Of a stretch of DNA of 64,000 bases, positions 32,281-41,578 are shown one piece after another. This DNA is from an uncultured Acidobacteriota bacterium. GTDB taxonomy: Bacteria; Acidobacteriota; Thermoanaerobaculia; UBA5066; Gp7-AA6. The stretch is taken from the NCBI GenBank assembly GCA_963739435.1, contig CAVUAN010000024.1, positions 39,486 through 103,485 on the forward strand, written 5' to 3'. Numbering within the stretch: the stretch's first letter is position 1; each line of letters opens with the position of its first letter. Both the position numbers and the translations under genes were made by a program. The notes under the pieces were generated by a model. It ran no database searches, was not told where the DNA came from, and was given only the letters and a program-made list of their open reading frames with translations.

Positions 32281-33279
32281 TCATCGCCGCACGGCCGGAC
32301 GATCCGAGAGCTTGCGGTCCAGCCGCGATCGGGAGATTCCCAGCGCCTTTGCCGCCCGCCGCTTGTTTCCTCCCAGCCGCGAGAGGACCTCTCGGATGTG
32401 CCGGCCCTCGGCGGCCGCCAGAGTGAGGCTTCCGTGCGGTGAGCCATCGCCTGCAGGATCCGGCGGATAGAACGCCGGCAAAGCCGGGATCTCGCGGTCC
32501 CCCTCCAGGAGCAGAGCCCCGGCCGTAACGATCTCCTGCGGTGAAAGAGCCACGGCTGCGTCGATGACCCGCGCCAGCTCCCGGAGGTTGCCGGGCCATG
32601 AGTAGGAAAAGATCCGCTCGGCCGCCTCCCGCTCGAGGCCCACGATCGGCTTGCGCTGCTGGCGGCTGGCACGGGCGATCTCGGAGGCGAGCAGCAACGG
32701 CAGGTCTTTTCGCCGATGCCGCAACGGCGGGACCGTGATCGTCAGACCGCTGACCCGAAAGAAAAGATCGCGCCGGAACCTGTCCGACTCGGTGAAGGTC
32801 ACCGCCGGGAAATGCGTGGCCGAGATGACCCGCACGTCGGCGACCTGGATCTGCTCCGAGCCCAGCCGCTCGAACTCGCCGTACTCGATCGCGCGCAGGA
32901 TCTTGGCCTGGCCGGCCGGGCTCATGTCGGCAATCTCGTCGATGAAGAGCGTGCCGCCGTCGGCCAGCTCGAACTTTCCCCGCACGCGGCTCTGAGCCCC
33001 TGTGAACGCCCCGCGCTCGTGGCCGAAGAGCTGGCTGTCCAGGAGCGTGTCGGAGAGCGCGGCGGCATTGAACGAGACAAAGGGTCCGCGAACGCGCGAG
33101 GAGCTGTTATGGATCGCCCGGGCCAATAGCGTCTTGCCGGTGCCCGACTCGCCCAGGATCAGGATCGGCAGGTCGGTCCGCGCCGCCAGCTTTGCCCGCT
33201 CGAGGCAGGCGGCCATCGCCGGATCGACGCTGTGGTAGGAGTCGAGCTTGAGGTCCGAGGAGCCGTCGGGGCGCGTCAT
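32281..33279 (-). CDS. Sigma-54-dependent transcriptional activator (bEBP) with AAA+ and Fis-type HTH domains only, no N-terminal sensor or receiver domain
   Basis: 332 aa: Walker A GESGTGKT, the GAFTGA motif (ERGAFTGAQ), LFIDEI, WPGNLREL, and a C-terminal HTH GGNKRRAAKALGISRSRL. Confidence 0.92.
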   Translation of the reverse strand: MTRPDGSSDLKLDSYHSVDPAMAACLERAKLAARTDLPILILGESGTGKTLLARAIHNSSSRVRGPFVSFNAAALSDTLLDSQLFGHERGAFTGAQSRVRGKFELADGGTLFIDEIADMSPAGQAKILRAIEYGEFERLGSEQIQVADVRVISATHFPAVTFTESDRFRRDLFFRVSGLTITVPPLRHRRKDLPLLLASEIARASRQQRKPIVGLEREAAERIFSYSWPGNLRELARVIDAAVALSPQEIVTAGALLLEGDREIPALPAFYPPDPAGDGSPHGSLTLAAAEGRHIREVLSRLGGNKRRAAKALGISRSRLDRKLSDRPAVRR

Positions 33280-33286
33280 GCTTTGA

Positions 33287-34510
33287 TCACTTCTCGCTGG
33301 CCAGGTTCTCCTTCAACTGGCGCAGCGGCTCGAAGGCGTACGAGAGGAGCGACCGCCGGCCCACGATGACGCGGGCGCGTCCGGCCATGCCGGGGACCAC
33401 GGGTCGGGGCTGTCCGTGGACCAGGACCTGCGTCTCACGCAGGTCCGCAAGGGCGCGGAAGGCCGACGTGCCGCCCTTGCCGCCGACTGTCTCGGGGCTG
33501 ACCCAGCGGATGGTCGCCTGGCGCACTCCGTAGCGCTGATAGGGGAAGGCGTCGTACAGGAGCTTGACGGGCTGGCCGGTTCGGACGAGCGCCATCCCAT
33601 CCTGCGGCAAGGTCAGCTCCGCCTGGAGCGTCTGGCCCTCGCATGCCAGTTCGGCCAGAAGGTCGCCCTCGCGGACGGTCGCGCCGGCGCTGCGAACGTG
33701 CAGCTGGAGGATGCTCCCGGTACAGGGGGCTGGCACAGTCAACTGGTTTCCCGTCCGGGCGAGCTCCTTCTCGAGCATTGCCGTGCGGATGTTCGCCCGG
33801 GAGAGCTCTTCGGCGAGACCGCGCTGGACCTCCTGGAATTGAGCCTGTCGCGAGCGCCGCTCGAAGCGCAGCTTCTCCGCGGCACGCCGCGTGTCTTCGC
33901 GTTGGGATTTGGCCTGCTCGGCCTCGACCTCGAGCCGGTTGATCTCCAGCCGCAGGCGCGCGAGATCCATCCAGCTCGACACTCCCTCGTCGAGGGTCTT
34001 CTTCTGGCGGTCCGCGAGCTCGGCCGCGAGAGCGAGCTGCTCGCCGTTCTTGACAATCGTCCGATCCAGGCTCTCGAGGCGCGCCTTCAGCTGCTGCTCC
34101 TCTTCGCCGTCTGCCTTCTGCTCACCGTCGTACTTCTGCCGGGCGTTGGCGAGGCGGTCCCCGGCGCCGGCAATCTGAGCTTTCAGGCCTTCCCACTCCG
34201 CCGCGCGGTCACCGACCGGCGGAGAGGCAATCGTGAACATCGTTTCACCCTCCCGGACCGGCTGCGCGTCGAAAGCCTTGACCTCCGTCACGATCCCGTC
34301 CTTGAAGGCGCGTATCGGGTCGGTGCCACGGACGGGAGCGAGGACGAACGTAGCCGCCACCGTCTCCGGGACGCGGAGGAGGACCGCCGCCAGGGCCGCA
34401 AAGGCAAAGAGCGCGAGAAGGATCGAAGCGAGCGCCCGGGCGGCCCACGGGGGCGGCTCCCGGTCGAGAAAGGGCTCTGCGCTTTCGGGAGATCCGGCGA
34501 CAGCGTTCAT
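33287..34510 (-). CDS. HlyD-family membrane fusion / secretion adaptor protein
   Basis: ATG at 34510 in ORF 33287..35101. One N-terminal TM helix (ILLALFAFAALAAVLL), a long coiled-coil (QLKARLESLD..RLEINRLEVEAEQAK), and a C-terminal beta-barrel ending GMAGRARVIVGRRSLLSY. Confidence 0.88.
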   Translation of the reverse strand: MNAVAGSPESAEPFLDREPPPWAARALASILLALFAFAALAAVLLRVPETVAATFVLAPVRGTDPIRAFKDGIVTEVKAFDAQPVREGETMFTIASPPVGDRAAEWEGLKAQIAGAGDRLANARQKYDGEQKADGEEEQQLKARLESLDRTIVKNGEQLALAAELADRQKKTLDEGVSSWMDLARLRLEINRLEVEAEQAKSQREDTRRAAEKLRFERRSRQAQFQEVQRGLAEELSRANIRTAMLEKELARTGNQLTVPAPCTGSILQLHVRSAGATVREGDLLAELACEGQTLQAELTLPQDGMALVRTGQPVKLLYDAFPYQRYGVRQATIRWVSPETVGGKGGTSAFRALADLRETQVLVHGQPRPVVPGMAGRARVIVGRRSLLSYAFEPLRQLKENLASEK

Positions 34511-37500
34511 CAGTCCGACACCCCGAGCTGCTGGCTCGAAAGATAGTAGTAGAGGCCCTTTCGCTGGAGAAGCTCGTCGTGCGTGCCGCGTTCGACCAGC
34601 CTCCCCTTCTCGAGCACCAGGATGGTATCCGCGTTGCGGATGGTGCTCAGGCGGTGGGCGATGACGAAGCAGGTGCGCCCCTCGAGCAGCCGGTCCATGT
34701 TCTCCTGCACGGCGCGCTCGGATTCGGTGTCGAGCGAGCTCGTCGCCTCGTCGAAGATCAGAACGGGTGGCTGGGTATAGACCGCCCGGGCGATGGCGAC
34801 CCGCTGCTTCTGGCCGCCGGAGATGGCCAGGCCGCTCTCGCCGATCTTCGTTTCGTAGCCCAGCGGCAGCCGGTCGATGAACTCGTGCGCATTGGCCACG
34901 CGCGCCGCCCAGAGCACTCGATCCATGTCGGGCTCCGCCTCGCCGAAGGCGATGTTCCGGGCGATCGTGTCCGAGAAGAGATAGTTCTCCTGGAGGACGA
35001 ACCCGATCTGGCGCCGCAGGTCGCGGTAGTTCAGGGTCTTCAGATCGACGCCATCGTAAGTAATCGAGCCCTGCGTCGGCTCGAGCAGGCCCGCCAGGCA
35101 CTTGACCAGAGTCGTCTTGCCCGAGCCGCTGCGGCCGACGATCGCCACGAACTGGCCGGGCGGAGCCTCGAAGCTGATGCCCTCGAGAATCGGCAGGCGC
35201 TTCGGGGCCGCCGTAGCGAGAAGCCGAGGTTCGTCAGCTCGATCGCGGCCCTCGAGGCTCTTGACCGGATGGAGGCGCGAGCGGTCGGCGCCCTGCTCGG
35301 GCTCCTGCTCGAAGACGTCGTTCAGGCGGTTCAAGAGAACCGAGGAGCGCTGCCAGTTGTCCCAGATCGTGAGCAGCGTCAGCACCGAGACGTTGGCCAG
35401 CGCGACGAGCGAGTTGAAAGCAACCAGGCCGCCGATGGTGAGCGGACCCGGCCATCACCTGGCGGGCGCCGGCCCACAGGAAGAGCACGGTCGTCAGGAT
35501 GGTCACGGTCTGCACGCCTCCCAGGTACGACATCACCGTGAAGTCGGCCCGGAACATGCGCCGTCGCCACGCTCAGGAACTGATTCAAGCATGATCTCGC
35601 GGAAGGAGCCTTCGGCGCCCAACGCCTTCACCGTCTCGATGCCTTTGATGGCGTCGATCTGGTGGGAGTGGTACTTGCCGAAGGAGTCCTCGAGGGTGTC
35701 GAAGACGGGGCGCAGCCAACGGGCGGAAAGAACCATCAATAGCCCGTAGAGGGGAGCCGTCAGCAGGAATACGACGGTCAGCGCACGGCTGTAGATGAGC
35801 ATGAGGATGAGGCTCGCGCCGAGCTGGGTCGCCGCCGCGAGCCCCGCAACACCGCTCTGGACCAGGAACTCCCGGACATTCCGCATGCCTTCGAGACGCC
35901 GCTGAATGTCTCCCGTGCGGCGCGTCGAGAAGTAGACATCGGAAGGGCCAGGAGCTTGCGGGTCAGGAAGTCGAGCGATGACGCGTCGATCCGCACGGCG
36001 ACGAAGCTCAACAGATAGCGCTGGACGCCCATCGATAGGACCTGGAAGACCAGGACCGCGATCATCGAGACGACGATCATGTTCAAGAGCGACGCGTCGT
36101 CGTTCGACGAGCACCCGATCAACGATGACCTGCGTGAAGATGGGCAGAATCATCTGCAGGGCGGCACCGATCAGGCCGAGCCCGAGCGCCTGGAGCAGGA
36201 TGCGCTGGAAGGGCCGGAAGAACGGTACGAGCCACGCCAGATTCGACGGCGTGACCGGCGCCGTCTCGAACGCGTCGGTGTAGTCGAAGAGGGCGGCATA
36301 GCCGGACCAGCGCTCTTCGAACTCGGAACGGGTGAACCGCCGCAACCCGAAAGCCGGGTCGGCAACGCGGCAGTGCGTCGGCGTGACGTCGTGGAGCACC
36401 ACCCAGTGGTTGCCCTCCCAGTGAACGATGGCGGGCAGCGGCATCTGCGCAAGGTTCTCCGGGGAGGCCTTGACCGACCGCGCGGCGAGGCCAAGCTCGG
36501 TCGCGGCGTGGCAGAGCCCCTTCAAGCTCGTGCCGTCCAGGGACGTGTGCACGAGCTGGCGGATGCGCGCCAGGCTGACAGCCCGCCCGTAGTGCCGGCA
36601 CACCATGGCGAGGGACGCGGCGCCGCAATCCATCTCGTCGATCTGCCGCACGACGGGGAAGCGCCGGATGCGGCCGGCCGACTTGACGAAGCGGCCGTCC
36701 TCGGCGAAGGGGGCGCCCTCGACCTCGCCGCCCGCCTCGGTCTCCTCCTCGCCCTGCTCGACCTGATCCGGGCCAACCATCTCCTGGACGGCAGCCTCGG
36801 CGGGCAGGATCTCCTCGGCGAAGTCGAGGGGTACGCGCGCGGTCTGCCGGTAATCGTATTGCGCAATCCGTTCTTCGATCTGGGCCCCGAGGCCGGGAAC
36901 CTCGGCGAGGAGCTTGCGGAAAGTGTCGGGGCGCAGCACGAGGAGCCGGCACGGCGAGACGGCTTCCACGCTCGCGGTGCGCGAGACCCCCTGGAAGACG
37001 GACATCTCCCCGAAGAAATCTCCCTTGCGAAGATAGGCGACATAGCGGCGGCGGCCGTCCTCCTCGGTGAAGACGCGCAGGTGCCCGTCTTCCACGATGT
37101 AGAGCGGCCCGGCCGAATCGCCCTGACGCACGACGACTGTTCCCTTCGTGACTTCGAGCGGAGCGAGCTCCGACAGAAGCGTCGCGAGAGCGGCCGGGGG
37201 AAGCCGGGCGTACGGGATGTAGTGGTGAAAGAAGTTCTCGAGCTTGCGGTGCTTGATTTGGAGCTCGAAGTATTGGCGGATGTCCGGGCTGCGTCGCACG
37301 AGCGCTTCGAAGACGGACTTGTCCAGCCGCAGAGCCTCCACGTCGCTGGACGCTCGAACGGTCGCCGTGCGGGTCGAGTGGTCCAGCAGACCCATCTCGC
37401 CGAAGCTTTGTCCGGGCCGCAGGCTGGTCAGGGCGATCTCCTCCCCCTGCTCGCCGAGCTTGACGACGCGCGCTTTTCCGGACACCAGGACGTAGAACGC

Positions 37501-37641
37501 GTCCGCTGAATCGCCTTCCCGGACGATCAGGTCGCCGAAGGCGAACGATGCCGGCTCGAAGCTCTCGACGACGAGGGCCCGGGTGTCGGCAGGCAGGAAC
37601 CGCAGGATCGGCAGGTCTTCGAGCCGCTCGCGTCCGGTCAT
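34510..37641 (-). CDS. Peptidase-C39 ABC exporter (PCAT) with two N-terminal cyclic-nucleotide-binding domains; at least five apparent frameshifts (~36100, ~35945, ~35590, ~35560, ~35450)
   Basis: ATG at 37641. There are two CAP_ED-like domains (FGEMGLL..RTATV.A and FFGEMSVF..SRTASVEA). The C39 domain is VVRQIDEMDCGAASLAMVCRHYG..HWVVL. The TMD pieces lie in ORFs 35533..37995, 35778..36122, 35379..35588 and 35234..35557. The NBD in ORF 34510..35385 carries GRSGSGKTT, LSGGQKQRVAIARA and LIFDEATS. A stretch GRDRADEPRLLATAAPKR at ~35170-35250 looks locally out of frame, where GRIELTNLGFS.. would be expected. Confidence 0.85.
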
Positions 37642-37645
37642 GGCG

Positions 37646-38707
37646 TCAGATCCGCTGGACCCAGCGAACGCGCGCCTGGATCTCGTGTTCGACGGCGGCC
37701 GCCCGCAGGTGGAACTCGGCGCGCCGCCGGACCTCCGGGTCCCTCTCCGAGGGCAGGGCCTTGTCACGGACGAGAAGGAGATGGAACTCCTCTCCGAGCC
37801 GGAGCGGGCCCACGAGATCGCCCGGACCGGCCCCGAGCAGCTGGGGCCTTGCGGTCTCATCGACGTCTTCCAGGTACAGACGCGACTCCCGCGGCGCGGT
37901 GTGCGCGTTGGCGGCGACCGCTTCGAGCGAGTCGCCGTCCTCTCGCAGGCACAGCAGCGCCTCTTGCGCGGCGGCCTCCCGGGTGAAGCCGACATCCTGG
38001 ACGTCCAGCCGGACCCAGTCGAGGTTTCGCGCCTCGATCGCTCTGCGGACGGCCGGCGGCGTGGCGAGGCGGCGGCAAATGTCTTCGAACACGAGAGTCA
38101 GCCTCGCCAGCTCCGCGATCCGCTCGGCTCCAGGCGGTACCAGGTCGGGAGGTCCGGACCGCTCGAAAACGCTCGAGACCTCGACAACGGCGCGCTTCAT
38201 GTCTTTGGGCGTCGGCTCTGCGTGCTGGCCCGTCCCTCCGGCTGCAGACGCCTGCCCGAGGGCGGCTTGCCCGGCGAGGGTCTCGGCGAACCGGGACAGC
38301 GCTCCGGAACAAACCGACTCGGCCAGGATGCACTCCGAGATCTCGTCGTTCTCGGGAGCGAAGGCGGACAGGTCCTCATCGGGAGTGCCGCCAGCCCGCA
38401 GGAGCGCCCGCTCGATGTACTCCATCCAGTCGTCGACAGAAAGCCCGGCGCGGGCCAGCCACGCCTCCATTTCCTCGGCCGCAATGAGCTCGCGCTCGTA
38501 TCGGAACTCCTGTGCGGCCGCTTCGAGCTCCTCCTCGGAGACCGTCTCTCCGGCCTCTTCCGCGCGGTGGGAGAGGGCGAGGCCCTGGCGGACCTGCTCC
38601 TCGAGTGCGGACCAGTCTCCCCGCAGCACGGCGGCGGCAGCGACATCCCGCCACATGTAGGTGTGCTCACCTACGGTGAACGCCGGACGAGTCCAAAAAG
38701 TGTCCAT
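37646..38707 (-). CDS. Parvulin/PpiC-like C-terminal-domain protein, putative peptide maturation or chaperone component
   Basis: ORF 37646..38863. The likely start is ATG 38707 (MDTFWTRPAFTVGEHTYMWRDV); the alternative is GTG 38863. The C-terminus PGDLVGPLRLGEEFHLLLVRDK resembles the end of rotamase domains (G.vs.Pv.t..G.Hii.v). It lies 4 nt upstream of the PCAT start. Confidence 0.7.
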   Translation of the reverse strand: MDTFWTRPAFTVGEHTYMWRDVAAAAVLRGDWSALEEQVRQGLALSHRAEEAGETVSEEELEAAAQEFRYERELIAAEEMEAWLARAGLSVDDWMEYIERALLRAGGTPDEDLSAFAPENDEISECILAESVCSGALSRFAETLAGQAALGQASAAGGTGQHAEPTPKDMKRAVVEVSSVFERSGPPDLVPPGAERIAELARLTLVFEDICRRLATPPAVRRAIEARNLDWVRLDVQDVGFTREAAAQEALLCLREDGDSLEAVAANAHTAPRESRLYLEDVDETARPQLLGAGPGDLVGPLRLGEEFHLLLVRDKALPSERDPEVRRRAEFHLRAAAVEHEIQARVRWVQRI

Positions 38708-38874
38708 GTCGTGGCGGCGAAACGATACCAGCGAAGCCGAAGTCCACGGCGAGACAATTGGTTTCACTTCGATACCATCATGTCCCGTTTCGATCGGCAG
38801 TCCGTACTCGGCGCCGGGGCAGCCCTCTCGGCAAAGCCCCTTGAGAGCAAGAAGTTCGGACACCTCCGGGCGGC

Positions 38875-38890
38875 TGGCACCGATGCTGCT
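38875..38890 (+). promoter_or_regulatory. Sigma-54 (-24/-12) promoter candidate: TGGCACcgatgCTGCT
   Basis: A perfect TGGCAC -24 box, N5, and a CTGC -12 box with canonical spacing. It lies ~33 nt upstream of the GTG of the first peptide gene and shares the CTGCT -12 element with the promoter at 32150..32165. Confidence 0.7.
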
Positions 38891-38921
38891 ATACGATCAG
38901 GGAACGAAGGGAGGACGCATC

Positions 38922-39110
38922 GTGAGCAAGAAGAAAGCGGCGAAAGCGAAAACGGCCCGAGGCATCCGGAATCTTCCCGCGAAGACGCTGACCGCCAAGA
39001 ACGCCCGGAACGTCAAAGCCGGCAAGGCTCAGAATGCCGACGGATCACTGGATGCGGGCATACATTTCAAGTACGACATCAAGGCCCAGAAAAACTTTCG
39101 CACTCGTTGA
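38922..39110 (+). CDS. GG-leader peptide 1 (62 aa)
   Basis: GTG start preceded by GGGAGG. Sequence: VSKKKAAKAKTARGIRNLPAKTLTAKNARNVKAG|KAQNADGSLDAGIHFKYDIKAQKNFRTR. It is the C-terminal part of track ORF 38661..39110. Confidence 0.75.
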   Translation: MSKKKAAKAKTARGIRNLPAKTLTAKNARNVKAGKAQNADGSLDAGIHFKYDIKAQKNFRTR

Positions 39111-39154
39111 TCGGGGGAAAGGTCCCGCGAGGCCTGAGATCAATTGGTTCCGAC

Positions 39155-39283
39155 GTGAGCAAGGTGAAAGAGAAGGCGGCCCGTGGCACCCGGGATGTTC
39201 CCGTGAGGACGCTGACCGCCAACCATGCTCGGGACGTCAAGGGGGGGCGAGGCGCCGGAGTGAAGCGACACCAGTACATGTAG
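39155..39283 (+). CDS. GG-leader peptide 2 (42 aa, most divergent, no clear SD)
   Basis: VSKVKEKAARGTRDVPVRTLTANHARDVKGG|RGAGVKRHQYM. It is the C-terminal end of the spurious track ORF 37583..39283. Confidence 0.5.
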   Translation: MSKVKEKAARGTRDVPVRTLTANHARDVKGGRGAGVKRHQYM

Positions 39284-39347
39284 TCGCCCCAGGAATCTCG
39301 GCTGACATCGGTACGGCTGCTGTGAGCGAAGAAAGAAAGGGGACACC

Positions 39348-39500
39348 ATGAGCAAGAAGAAGGCAGCGAAAGCGAAGACGGCCCCAGGCATCCGGAAGCT
39401 TTCCCCGAAGACGCTGACCGCCAAACAGGCCAGGGGCGTCAAGGGTGGCAAGCACATCGGCAACGTCAAGTACACAGACAACACCGGACTCAAGCGATGA
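39348..39500 (+). CDS. GG-leader peptide 3 (50 aa)
   Basis: Manual translation: MSKKKAAKAKTAPGIRKLSPKTLTAKQARGVKGG|KHIGNVKYTDNTGLKR. An SD-like AAAGGGG lies upstream. Not in the ORF track (<60 aa). Confidence 0.75.
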   Translation: MSKKKAAKAKTAPGIRKLSPKTLTAKQARGVKGGKHIGNVKYTDNTGLKR

Positions 39501-39544
39501 TGACCAGGAGGCCTTAGAAAAAAGGACGTTAAGGAGGAGGCGAC

Positions 39545-39697
39545 ATGACCAAGAAGAAAGCGGCCAAAGCGAGCAAGGCCCGAGGCATTCGGAAGCTTCC
39601 CTCGAAGACGCTGACCGCCAAACAGGCGCGGGACGTCAAGGGCGGCAGGAAGATCGGCGACATCAAGGGGGAAAGCCTCGGAATAATCAGGCGATGA
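39545..39697 (+). CDS. GG-leader peptide 4 (50 aa)
   Basis: Manual translation: MTKKKAAKASKARGIRKLPSKTLTAKQARDVKGG|RKIGDIKGESLGIIRR. A strong SD, AAGGAGGAGG, lies upstream. Not in the ORF track. Confidence 0.8.
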   Translation: MTKKKAAKASKARGIRKLPSKTLTAKQARDVKGGRKIGDIKGESLGIIRR

Positions 39698-39738
39698 CGA
39701 CAAGGAGAGCTTAAGAAAAACGTTGAGGAGGGGGCAGC

Positions 39739-39894
39739 ATGAGCAAGAAAAAGCCAGCGAAAGCAAAAACGGCCCGAGGCATCCGGAATCTTCCCGCAAA
39801 GAGCTTGTCCGCCAAATCGGCCCGGGACGTCAAGGGGGGCCGCAAGGCCGGCAAGGGCCAACAGGAGTTCTTGAGCGCCATCCGAGAAAGGTAG
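39739..39894 (+). CDS. GG-leader peptide 5 (51 aa)
   Basis: Manual translation: MSKKKPAKAKTARGIRNLPAKSLSAKSARDVKGG|RKAGKGQQEFLSAIRER. The SD is GAGGAGGGGG. The intergenic spacer is homologous to the one before peptide 4. Not in the ORF track. Confidence 0.8.
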   Translation: MSKKKPAKAKTARGIRNLPAKSLSAKSARDVKGGRKAGKGQQEFLSAIRER

Positions 39895-39900
39895 GGCGAC

Positions 39901-40095
39901 ATGGACAAGAAGAAGACCGGGAAGACCAGGAAGTCCAGGGCGGCCACCTCGGTGAGAAATCTTCGCGTGAAAACGCTCGACGCCAGGAGCGCGAAGGGCG
40001 CCAAGGGAGGCGCCACGAGCGAGCTGACGATAACGCGCGTCGTCGACAAGTCCAGCCCGGTCTTATACCAGTCCGAGCCGAGCCTGAAGAGATAA
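39901..40095 (+). CDS. GG-leader peptide 6 (64 aa)
   Basis: Track ORF: MDKKKTGKTRKSRAATSVRNLRVKTLDARSAKGAKGG|ATSELTITRVVDKSSPVLYQSEPSLKR. The leader is divergent but keeps RNL..KTL.A..AKG.KGG. Confidence 0.75.
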   Translation: MDKKKTGKTRKSRAATSVRNLRVKTLDARSAKGAKGGATSELTITRVVDKSSPVLYQSEPSLKR

Positions 40096-40168
40096 CCAGA
40101 GAGCGACAGCTCGTCCCCCGAAGCAACTGAGGGAGGAGGCGCGCGCCGCGCGGACGCGCGAGCGACGG

Positions 40169-40621
40169 TTACACCTCGCTGTACTCCGGGACGTAGCCCG
40201 CCATCAGGCTGTCCTTGGGCAGGATCGTCTGGCCCGGGCCGGCGCCTGGATCGCCCGTCTTGACCCAGTGCCAGGCGTGAACGATCTCGGCGGCCGGGTA
40301 ATAGCGCGTCTCCGCCTGGACCAGGACCGTGCCGGCGAGGATCTCCGCCTTGATGTCCTCCCAGCGGTGCGCGCCCACGACGGCCACGCGCTCGATCTGC
40401 TTCGCGTGCCTGGAGAGGAACTTGATCTCTTCCCACCGGGCAGCCCATTCGGTCCCCTTCATGGCGGAAAGATCCGCCAGGATTCCGATCGTCCGCTTGC
40501 CCCGATCGCCCATTGCCGTCTCGATCTGAGGTTCGAAGGCTTTGACCTCGGCAGCTGTGACCGTCCCGGTCACCTTGAACCCGAACGCCTTTCCCCCGCT
40601 CTCCTTCAGCTTCTCGATCAT
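40169..40621 (-). CDS. STAS/SpoIIAA-like protein (DUF3478-like)
   Basis: 150 aa: FGFKVTGTVTAAEVKAFEPQIE..IGILADLSAMKG..ERVAVVG. The family call is from memory. Confidence 0.65.
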   Translation of the reverse strand: MIEKLKESGGKAFGFKVTGTVTAAEVKAFEPQIETAMGDRGKRTIGILADLSAMKGTEWAARWEEIKFLSRHAKQIERVAVVGAHRWEDIKAEILAGTVLVQAETRYYPAAEIVHAWHWVKTGDPGAGPGQTILPKDSLMAGYVPEYSEV

Positions 40622-40828: not shown

Positions 40829-40903
40829 TGGAGCGGGAAACCGGGGTCGAACCGGCGACATCCACCTTGGCAAGGTGGCGCTCTACCACTGAGCTATTCC
40901 CGC
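40829..40903 (-). tRNA. tRNA-Gly (anticodon GCC), CCA encoded
   Basis: The minus strand reads GCGGGAATAGCTCAGTGGTAGAGCGCCACCTTGCCAAGGTGGATGTCGCCGGTTCGACCCCGGTTTCCCGCTCCA. It folds as a cloverleaf with a 7-bp acceptor stem, the anticodon stem CCACC/GGTGG with loop TTGCCAA, and a GTTCGA T-loop. Confidence 0.93.
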
Positions 40904-40939: not shown

Positions 40940-41578
40940 TCAAGCCTGCGGGAGCTCCTTGACCGGACCCCCGCAGTGCTGGCACACGCGGATGATCGTT
41001 GCGCCGAACTTCTTGGTCGGGGCGCACTCTTCGCACAGCGGCCTCGACGACTCCGTGCACTGAAAGAACGCCACGTGGTCGGTGTGCGTCCGGCAGCACA
41101 TCGGGGGTGTGACGCGTGCCGTCTTTCGCAGGGCAAAGAGAGACTTCAGATAGGGAAGATCGCCGGCCGGCACCGCGCCCCCGTCATTGACGCGGATGCG
41201 GTCCCGATCGTTGACCTCGCCGGTGCGGATCAAGGCCCGCATGCCGCGCCGGTCGAAGACGTCATTCTCGAAGCCAGGCTTCTCGATGTGGAAGCGGGTG
41301 CTGTCCCCGGGACTCGCCGCGCCCGCCGGTTCGTCGGCTGCCGCGGAAGGCCGGCTCGCAGGAGGGTCGGCCGGGGCTCGCGAAGGGGCGGGCGCCGTTG
41401 CCTTGACCTGGAGGGAGGCGTACACCCTTGCCTCGTCGCGAGACGGGAAGTCCATGGGTTGCGTACAGCTGGGACAACGGAAGCGAGCCTTGACCGGAGG
41501 GATCCGCTCGAGCTCGATCGAGAAGTTCCCGCCGCACTTTGGGCATGTAAAGGTGTAGCTGGGTGCGGGGTCGGTCAA
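40940..41578 (-). CDS. Zinc-ribbon (MJ0042-type) / GYF_2-like / B-box-type zinc-finger protein, hypothetical
   Basis: 212 aa. The N-terminus is CPKCGGNF..FRCPSCTQ. The C-terminus is a Cys/His cluster, CCRTHTDH..FQC..PLCEEC..VCQHCGG. Confidence 0.7.
   Translation of the reverse strand: MTDPAPSYTFTCPKCGGNFSIELERIPPVKARFRCPSCTQPMDFPSRDEARVYASLQVKATAPAPSRAPADPPASRPSAAADEPAGAASPGDSTRFHIEKPGFENDVFDRRGMRALIRTGEVNDRDRIRVNDGGAVPAGDLPYLKSLFALRKTARVTPPMCCRTHTDHVAFFQCTESSRPLCEECAPTKKFGATIIRVCQHCGGPVKELPQA

Follow-up and report, generated by a model that had tools for sequence, protein, structure and literature searches.

Class II microcins and double-glycine bacteriocins (colicin V CvaAB; PCAT1) are encoded by tandem small precursor genes, the leaders of which end in GG and carry hydrophobic residues at positions -4, -7 and -12, next to genes for an ABC exporter with a C39 peptidase and for a membrane-fusion protein. 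The same features occur in a 64,000-nucleotide (nt) stretch of DNA from an uncultured Acidobacteriota bacterium (contig CAVUAN010000024.1; this whole stretch is the window referred to below), where six short open reading frames (ORFs) of 42–64 amino acids (aa) lie in tandem on the + strand (38922–40095) and a four-gene export cassette diverges from them. In contrast to the microcins, the cores behind these leaders are not dedicated toxin sequences and resemble fragments of Hcp, the protein that builds the tube in type VI secretion systems (T6SS). No immunity gene is recognised here, and the cassette adds two cyclic nucleotide (cNMP)-binding domains, a SurA/PrsA-like, putatively cytoplasmic protein and sigma-54 control. 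The best overall explanation, although its chance is judged to be just short of even, is that the array encodes exported double-glycine Hcp-fragment peptides which act as mimics of Hcp segments.

Other described systems share single aspects of this locus. HetC of Nostoc PCC 7120 has a nucleotide-binding domain before its C39 peptidase and ABC exporter; it needs this cNMP domain, which binds ppGpp (PMC10986499). However, the cargo and context of HetC (heterocyst differentiation) differ, and the exporter described here has two cNMP domains and belongs to a four-gene cassette. Similarly, NHLP/Nif11 leader-peptide systems comprise multi-copy precursor arrays, use the same broad exporter family (TIGR03796) and take part of the precursor from an unrelated protein family; there the leader is protein-derived and the cores are hypervariable and modified, whereas here the leader is new, the cores are protein-derived and the window lacks a modifying enzyme. 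The Bacteroidetes GG-leader peptides (PF14406, Bacteroid_pep) share a lysine-rich ...VKGG leader, and 3 of 139 members of the present family match this model weakly, although those peptides belong to another phylum and have other cores and a radical S-adenosylmethionine (SAM) context. The likeness to Hcp (TssD; PF05638; Hcp1, 1Y12) is a local homology, segment by segment, with an Hcp1-type donor clade. In contrast to Hcp, a foldable Hcp domain is missing from all of the peptides, which each present one or two secondary-structure elements behind a leader and outside T6SS clusters. The export route is of a known kind; it is for the cargo, tiled fragments of polymer-forming proteins, that no description was found.

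Leaders and cores of the array in the window

The six ORFs, pep1 to pep6 (Table 1), are an operon of predicted double-glycine-leader precursor peptides, and the original prediction, made from the DNA letters alone, had located them correctly and recognised an export leader before each core. They share a lysine-rich leader, ...IRNLPAKTLTAKQARxVKGG, with an AG end in pep1 and a divergent version in pep6, and their mutual similarity stops where the leader ends, the cores diverging completely. The consensus of 24–37 leaders is ...L(-12)TAKQA(-7)RGV(-4)KGG, in which L, A and G vary hardly or not at all. Thus, the hydrophobic positions -4, -7 and -12 of double-glycine leaders are filled by V, A and L, while the Glu at -8 of the double-glycine consensus is replaced by Gln. 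The combination that defines a double-glycine leader, an end in GG, GA or GS together with hydrophobic residues at these three positions, is present, and no curated model matches the leader. Against a leader hidden Markov model (HMM), pep2 scores lowest with 28 bits and the other five reach 41–66 bits. Ribosome-binding sites of the GGAGG type precede pep1, pep4 and pep5, a weaker site precedes pep3, and pep6 starts 6 nt past the stop of pep5. The mature peptides are short and mostly cationic, and inspection by eye of the alternative frames downstream of pep2, pep4 and pep5 revealed no convincing hidden continuation of Hcp.

The similarity of the cores to Hcp was assessed with an HMM built from 120 real full-length Hcps, each core being scored against 2000 shuffles of itself, a control proposed with the original prediction. 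The core of pep1 scores 36.5 bits at Hcp positions 134–157, that of pep5 11.0 bits at positions 87–97, that of pep4 10.4 bits at positions 8–17 and that of pep6 9.9 bits at positions 54–72, and none of the 2000 shuffles scored as high in any of the four cases. Together these four cores span about 64 of the 158 Hcp positions, which bears out the claim that they correspond to distinct Hcp segments; the PA0085 segments that had been quoted for this claim agree with the 1Y12 sequence, and the Hcps of this lineage share the core motifs, as the claim requires. A tblastn comparison of the pep1 core with the Hcp from a T6SS cluster gives 70% identity over 23 aa. The pep6 peptide matches PF05638 (E=0.005, 17.5 bits, profile positions 38–68 of 129) and TIGR03344 (E=0.012, 15.6 bits) below the respective cut-offs of 23.5 and 58.9, and the curated PF05638 cut-off is passed only by artificial concatenates of related arrays and by no single window peptide. 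The peptides fail Hcp membership because they have neither a complete domain nor a T6SS context. Searches of the window with an acidobacterial-type T6SS cluster (tblastn) and with the Hcp HMM revealed neither a full Hcp nor, as originally stated, any further T6SS gene, the sole tblastn match being the pep1 core.

The remaining two cores score lower. The pep2 core reaches -0.7 bits at positions 88–96, the RKAG...EY(L/M) segment, and 43 of its 2000 shuffles score as high; it is probably a decayed copy of this segment (class D), and its original assignment to the glycine loop of Hcp was wrong. The pep3 core, which had been placed on the same strand as pep4, is not significant alone against the Hcp HMM (-1.6 bits, no meaningful placement, 1356 of 2000 shuffles as high). 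It nevertheless looks like a diverged paralogue of pep4, because it is co-linear with pep4, has an equal core length and ends in the same way. Orthologues of pep1 are found in locus L001 and in locus L003, the latter from an Acidobacteriota metagenome-assembled genome (MAG; GCA_039933215.1), that of pep6 is found in L001, and L003 carries the cores RIGNIKGESLDPKHPDTMDI and AVDVFAKLGDIKGESLDSKRRGY, orthologous to that of pep4. A full pep5-type core, RKAGKGQQEFLVVKMNDVIIT, is carried by family members.

Tiling of Hcp in related arrays

When a profile built on the six peptides was searched against JGI, ENA, NCBI and Logan assemblies, 46 proteins were recovered, and their cores are again Hcp fragments. 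An exhaustive search with a leader-plus-core profile yielded 232 cluster representatives (50% identity) at E<=1e-3, pointing to a family of at least 232 such clusters in Acidobacteriota-type soil metagenomes. With a narrower alignment of leaders, the L003 MAG was the single match among GTDB representative genomes, and JGI metagenome contigs gave none. Of all Pfam families, PF05638 alone is matched by more than 3 of 139 representatives, with 25 matches at E<=0.1. Hand-made Hcp motifs are present in 113 of 182 cores compared with 2.8+-1.7 in shuffled cores, which is a rough figure because the motifs were written after the data were seen. Chance similarity and assembly chimeras were considered and rejected, the family being present with synonymous divergence in independent data sets (JGI, ENA, NCBI and Logan).

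On the Hcp HMM, the cores of the relatives fall into six recurring classes with shared boundaries, comprising residues 2–24, 49–75, 58–92 (ending ATITH), 84–112 (RKAG...IIT), 122–140 and 125–158. The fragment boundaries recur between genomes, as exemplified by the ends ...ATITH and ...IIT, and the overlapping Hcp fragments of leader-bearing relatives leave hardly any of the protein uncovered. Most arrays lack the beta2 and glycine-loop segments, yet every Hcp segment, these two included, is found somewhere in the family, and in one protein (P0041) the entire C-terminal half of Hcp stands behind a leader. The L003 locus encodes six or seven peptides, the cores of which, merged in Hcp order, match PF05638 with 65.9 bits (E=5.6e-18). 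A composite of family cores is 62–69% identical to real 158-aa Hcps over the full length (E~1e-60). One of the Hcps matched by this composite (P0137) resides in a canonical T6SS cluster, between VipA/B and ImpE/TssF, the cluster comprising TssK, DotU, IcmF, VipA/B, ImpE, TssF, TssG, ClpV and VgrG. Among solved structures, P. aeruginosa Hcp1 (1Y12) comes closest to the matching Hcps, with E=8e-44 for the full-length Hcp P0072. A model of a full-length Hcp that AlphaFold2 (AF2) produced from a shallow alignment had low confidence (predicted local distance difference test, pLDDT, 47.5) and served only for the rough secondary structure of the C-terminal half.

The cores are thus shown, by sequence homology, to correspond to discrete parts of the Hcp1-type tube protein of the T6SS, structural segments that overlap in part. 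The original idea that Hcp is diced into separate GG-leader peptides is strongly supported and extends to related arrays elsewhere, next to an export system; neither the literature nor curated models yielded a description of Hcp split into leader-tagged exported peptides, in agreement with the novelty first claimed. Most family cores open with Lys or Arg right after GG and many close with basic residues. These basic core ends and the recurring fragment boundaries could reflect a cleavage-site preference or the mode of fragment capture.

A second lineage (L006, L007 and L010), in which the accessory protein of the export cassette is 52–53% identical to that of the window, displays cores such as ARDAAAGLPTGKRMHKP and ITKLVDKSSAVLFQKCATGEHFAK. 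Joined together, these two give a contiguous match to residues 74–114 of P. aeruginosa Hcp3 (3HE1; E=5e-5), and the core concatenates of this lineage pass the Pfam cut-off. The Hcp subtype that is tiled therefore differs between lineages.

The supply of most Hcp segments, with overlaps, by the single L003 array is consistent with an alternative in which the fragments are exported singly, since the exporter takes small cargo only, and then build an Hcp-like or amyloid-like structure outside the cell or in the periplasm, joined by beta-strand complementation or by overlaps resembling domain swaps. A SurA-like chaperone would suit such aggregation-prone strands, and the conservation profile of the peptides (see below) is that of a folding Hcp. 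However, the class content varies between arrays, the window containing stubs and no class C, beta2 and the glycine loop are mostly lacking, and to our knowledge there is no example of non-covalent reassembly of a protein from six or more pieces. Co-assembly is thus judged very improbable.

The Hcp and DUF1559/H-X9-DG prepilin families are both subunits of polymerising secretion-related filaments, and fragments resembling the latter (FTLIE..., VIAIIA...LLPAVQKVRE, DGTSNTVFFGE and MGDGSVRFVR) occur behind the same leader type. These cores are found in L015 (16484–19500), in a second array of L001 (876–3001, - strand) and in P0216, P0299, P0317, P0319, P0325 and P0333. One of them lies above the TIGR04294 cut-off (27.4 bits, E=2e-6) and another matches PF07596 (E=0.0037). 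Judged from these matches, a second polymer-forming protein family is diced like Hcp. The '...GDGSVR...' cores of L006, L007 and L010 were also considered as Hcp C-termini, an assignment that was rejected as they fit better to H-X9-DG prepilin C-termini.

Orthologous peptide genes were compared for both parts of the precursors. Between the window and L003, at a synonymous divergence (dS) of ~1.1–1.2, the ratio of nonsynonymous to synonymous divergence (dN/dS) is 0.29 in the leader and 0.40 in the core; between the window and L001 (dS ~0.5–0.8) the values are 0.35 and 0.54, respectively. The DGSLDAG stretch is invariant in protein while nearly all of its degenerate codon sites differ between loci, including a TCA/AGT serine switch, which argues that the Hcp similarity is kept by selection and not by recent gene conversion. 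In an alignment of the 73 cores that match the Hcp HMM at E<=1e-3, the identity to the Hcp consensus is 76% across the 99 columns that contain six or more peptides. The per-column entropies of peptides and full-length Hcps correlate (Spearman 0.63, p=4e-12) in this set, all members of which had been chosen because they align to Hcp. Substitutions specific to the peptides, for example L to M at column 79, mark them as a lineage of their own apart from Hcp. At the sequence level, the cores are thus shown to be kept Hcp-like by purifying selection, and a pure relic appears unlikely for the family as a whole because this selection acts at dS ~1.

Export cassette and promoter

The cassette, divergent from the array on the - strand, encodes an accessory protein, an exporter, an HlyD adaptor and a sigma-54 activator (Table 1), and all loci of sufficient length have the genes in this same order. 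The AF2 model of the accessory protein has a mean pLDDT of 92.8, and its top Foldseek matches are SurA (2pv3/1m5y), PrsA (6vj2/4wo7) and PEB4, each with a probability of 1.0, while Pfam gives only a weak parvulin match (PF13145). The protein has no signal peptide and is therefore placed, by prediction, in the cytoplasm. Its homologues form 34 clusters, with at least 456 relatives in JGI metagenomes, and its gene lies directly upstream of the exporter in 64 of the 80 kept loci, namely those with an exporter match. A '393 aa' ORF of L001 that had been taken for a homologue proved not to be one.

The exporter matches Peptidase_C39 at 1e-37 and, read in a single frame, shares 69% identity with the intact 1041-aa protein of L003. 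The C39 catalytic motifs DCGAAS, NHWVVL and VADPA (Cys, His and Asp, respectively) are kept. Its best NCBIfam model is TIGR03796, below cut-off, and its orthologues are intact in L003, L006, L007, L010, L013 and L015. The array is therefore adjoined by both a C39 ABC exporter and an HlyD adaptor, though the window copy of the exporter is interrupted. The activator combines an AAA+ domain with a Fis-type helix-turn-helix (HTH) and is without an N-terminal sensor domain (PspF-like); wherever it was detected (16 of 80 loci) it occupies the same cassette position.

Two cNMP-binding domains on the exporter, together with the requirement for a ppGpp-binding cNMP domain in the related HetC (PMC10986499), would also suit an intracellular brake, in which uncleaved precursors bind the Hcp or prepilins of their own cell and block polymerisation until cNMP-triggered cleavage and export quickly free the machine. 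This would place the peptides in the cytoplasm, where Hcp assembles. However, none of the 80 related loci carries T6SS genes within 10 kb, the arrays being always apart from any T6SS cluster in the DNA examined; the idea also presupposes a T6SS in the producers, and the mode of regulation would be costly. Such a brake is judged very improbable, slightly more so even than co-assembly of the fragments.

The cassette contains no conserved small membrane-protein gene and no recognised immunity gene; a protective role in the producer is conceivable for the SurA-like protein. PADLOC returned generic domain matches only. No peptide-modifying enzyme gene is present in the window or in L003. A B12-binding radical SAM gene follows the arrays only in L006 (19325–21056), L007 (18735–20903) and L010 (11360–12994); its best match is NF050148, the maturase ApyD of peptides made by ribosomes and modified after translation (RiPPs), a Tyr beta-methyltransferase (E=1.9e-195 on a truncated copy), and some peptides of these three loci may therefore be modified.

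A sigma-54 (-24/-12) promoter lies ~30 nt upstream of the pep1 start codon. It is the sole match to TGGCAYN5YTGCW in the 64-kb window, compared with a chance expectation of 0.09, and the same motif is found directly upstream of peptide genes in L001 and L003/L004/L005; in all, three independent related loci have it before their peptide genes. No sigma-70-like site was found within 38600–40400. A degenerate sigma-54 region is also present upstream of pep3 (39284–39347), with CGGCTGACATCGGTACGGCTGCTG in place of the GCGGCTGGCACCGATGCTGCT found upstream of pep1, which suggests that the promoter was duplicated along with the peptide gene.

Table 1 Features of the peptide array, the export cassette and the adjoining genes in the window
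Feature	Position	Strand	Description
Sigma-54 (-24/-12) promoter	38875–38890	+	TGGCACCGATGCTGCT
pep1 precursor	38922–39110	+	62 aa, GTG start, leader end VKAG; core KAQNADGSLDAGIHFKYDIKAQKNFRTR, similar to Hcp C-terminal strands, class E
pep2 precursor	39155–39283	+	42 aa, GTG start, no clear ribosome-binding site, diverged leader; core RGAGVKRHQYM
pep3 precursor	39348–39500	+	50 aa; core KHIGNVKYTDNTGLKR, class A (Hcp strand beta1) as putative diverged pep4 paralogue
pep4 precursor	39545–39697	+	50 aa; core RKIGDIKGESLGIIRR, similar to Hcp N-terminal strand, class A
pep5 precursor	39739–39894	+	51 aa; core RKAGKGQQEFLSAIRER, shortened Hcp RKAG turn and next strand, class D
pep6 precursor	39901–40095	+	64 aa, more divergent leader; core ATSELTITRVVDKSSPVLYQSEPSLKR, similar to Hcp strand and DKSSP motif, class B
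Accessory protein	37646–38707	-	353 aa from M53 of the ORF; SurA/PrsA-like chaperone module with inserted parvulin domain
Peptidase-containing ABC exporter	34510–37641	-	Two cNMP-binding domains, C39 peptidase, ABC membrane domain, ATPase (Pfam)
HlyD-family membrane-fusion adaptor	33287–34513 (start approximate)	-	Pfam HlyD_3, HlyD_D23; matches TIGR01843; 63% identical to L003 HlyD
Sigma-54-dependent activator	32281–33279	-	Sigma54_activat 2e-59, HTH_8; 73% identical to L003 gene
SpoIIAA/STAS-like gene	40169–40621	-	Between array and tRNA-Gly(GCC)
tRNA-Gly(GCC)	40829–40903	-	Just downstream of array
Zinc-ribbon protein gene	40940–41578	-	Beyond tRNA-Gly(GCC)

Proposed role of the peptides

By homology with the described systems, the PspF-like activator would open the sigma-54 promoter upstream of pep1, the cytoplasmic SurA/PrsA-like chaperone would hold the strand-prone precursors and the C39 domain of the exporter would cut after GG. 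The ABC/HlyD machinery, together with an unlinked outer-membrane channel, would then expel the basic peptides of 11–28 aa, and the two cNMP-binding domains, following the precedent of HetC, may gate export by a nucleotide signal. The mature peptides would compete for the native contacts of Hcp segments in folding or in ring or tube formation, either in rivals or in the producer. That they are mimics of single Hcp structural elements, with an interference or regulatory role and not that of generic toxins, is proposed tentatively and with clearly less than even confidence. Hcp-segment mimicry is favoured because the residue-level constraints of the parent protein are retained, because lineages match different subtypes and because the second donor is also a polymerising protein. 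More doubtful is the wider proposal that ribosomal peptides copying single elements of polymerising nanomachine subunits, Hcp and, in sister arrays, DUF1559/H-X9-DG prepilins, are secreted, or removed in a gated manner, and inhibit or regulate the assembly of tubes or pili by strand competition, which is considered unlikely, if not markedly so.

Several points weigh against mimicry. Chief among them is the lack of an evident route by which exported peptides would enter the cytoplasm, the compartment in which Hcp assembles. Peptides and Hcp could each be independently constrained and hence similar, and the entropy correlation given above comes from pre-selected cores. In addition, the distant cassettes, with accessory proteins 28–38% identical, keep K-rich GG leaders and carry unrelated cores (L032, 16702–17100; L038, 7670–8200; L058, 8081–8593; L071, 16741–16914; L081, 16722–16895). 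Within the window itself, the cores are shortened in comparison with those of relatives, 10–24 Hcp-like residues being followed by basic tails, the class C fragment is missing and the exporter gene is broken by three short off-frame stretches containing stops (~36090–35920, 35570–35420 and 35240–35200).

The cores of the distant cassettes are very short or unrelated, as in RKQPR, TTTAKPKFPK and VIVDVSTQTHQQS... Hcp dicing is therefore a trait of one subclade and not a requirement of the machinery, and the early expectation of Hcp-like cores in homologous arrays holds for the related arrays and fails for these cassettes. The unrelated cores would be expected if the peptides were ordinary class II microcin-, bacteriocin- or pheromone-like products, with cores recruited long ago from hcp or prepilin genes for useful strand physics and with an activity unrelated to Hcp. 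The standard route of double-glycine leader, peptidase-containing ABC exporter and HlyD agrees with this exaptation, as do the short, mostly cationic mature peptides of the window and the substitutions, such as that at column 79, that separate the peptide lineage from Hcp. In contrast, an immunity gene is not evident in the conserved cassette, the cores stay ~76% identical to the Hcp consensus and share its constrained positions, the tiled Hcp subtype varies with the lineage and whole sets spanning most of Hcp co-occur in one genome (L003). Exaptation is thus a serious explanation but, on balance, rather unlikely.

The off-frame stretches of the exporter, the missing ribosome-binding site of pep2, the lost Hcp signal of pep3 and the short cores would further agree with the window copy being a decaying, non-functional remnant of the family. 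T6SS cluster L008, which is from the same ENA project as the window, also has split genes; assembly indels are therefore a plausible cause of the exporter breaks, which may otherwise represent real decay. The leaders and start codons are undamaged, as are four ribosome-binding sites and the sigma-54 promoter, and the flanking cassette genes align over their full length. Given the disrupted exporter and the shortened cores, relic status is possible for this copy, but a non-functional remnant is on the whole improbable.

There is a substantial chance that the biology described here is categorically new. If Hcp-segment mimicry is correct, this would be the first case known to us of a structural protein of a secretion nanomachine tiled into individually exported, selection-maintained peptides. 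It would provide natural peptides with which the assembly of Hcp rings and tubes, and perhaps also that of pseudopilins, could be probed or inhibited, and would constitute a new class of protein-mimic interference peptides with a new anti-T6SS or T6SS-control mechanism. The capture by a leader of fragments of resident genes would represent a new evolutionary route to natural-product cores. The uncharacterised cassette, with its SurA-like chaperone, putatively cNMP-gated exporter and sigma-54 control, is widespread in soil metagenomes, as the abundance of accessory-protein relatives indicates. Even if the peptides are ordinary bacteriocins or signals, their origin and their conserved fragment boundaries would be unusual, and a curated family model is merited.

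Of the three genes listed in Table 1 beyond the array, the SpoIIAA/STAS-like gene, tRNA-Gly(GCC) and the zinc-ribbon protein gene, none is conserved beside the arrays of other loci.

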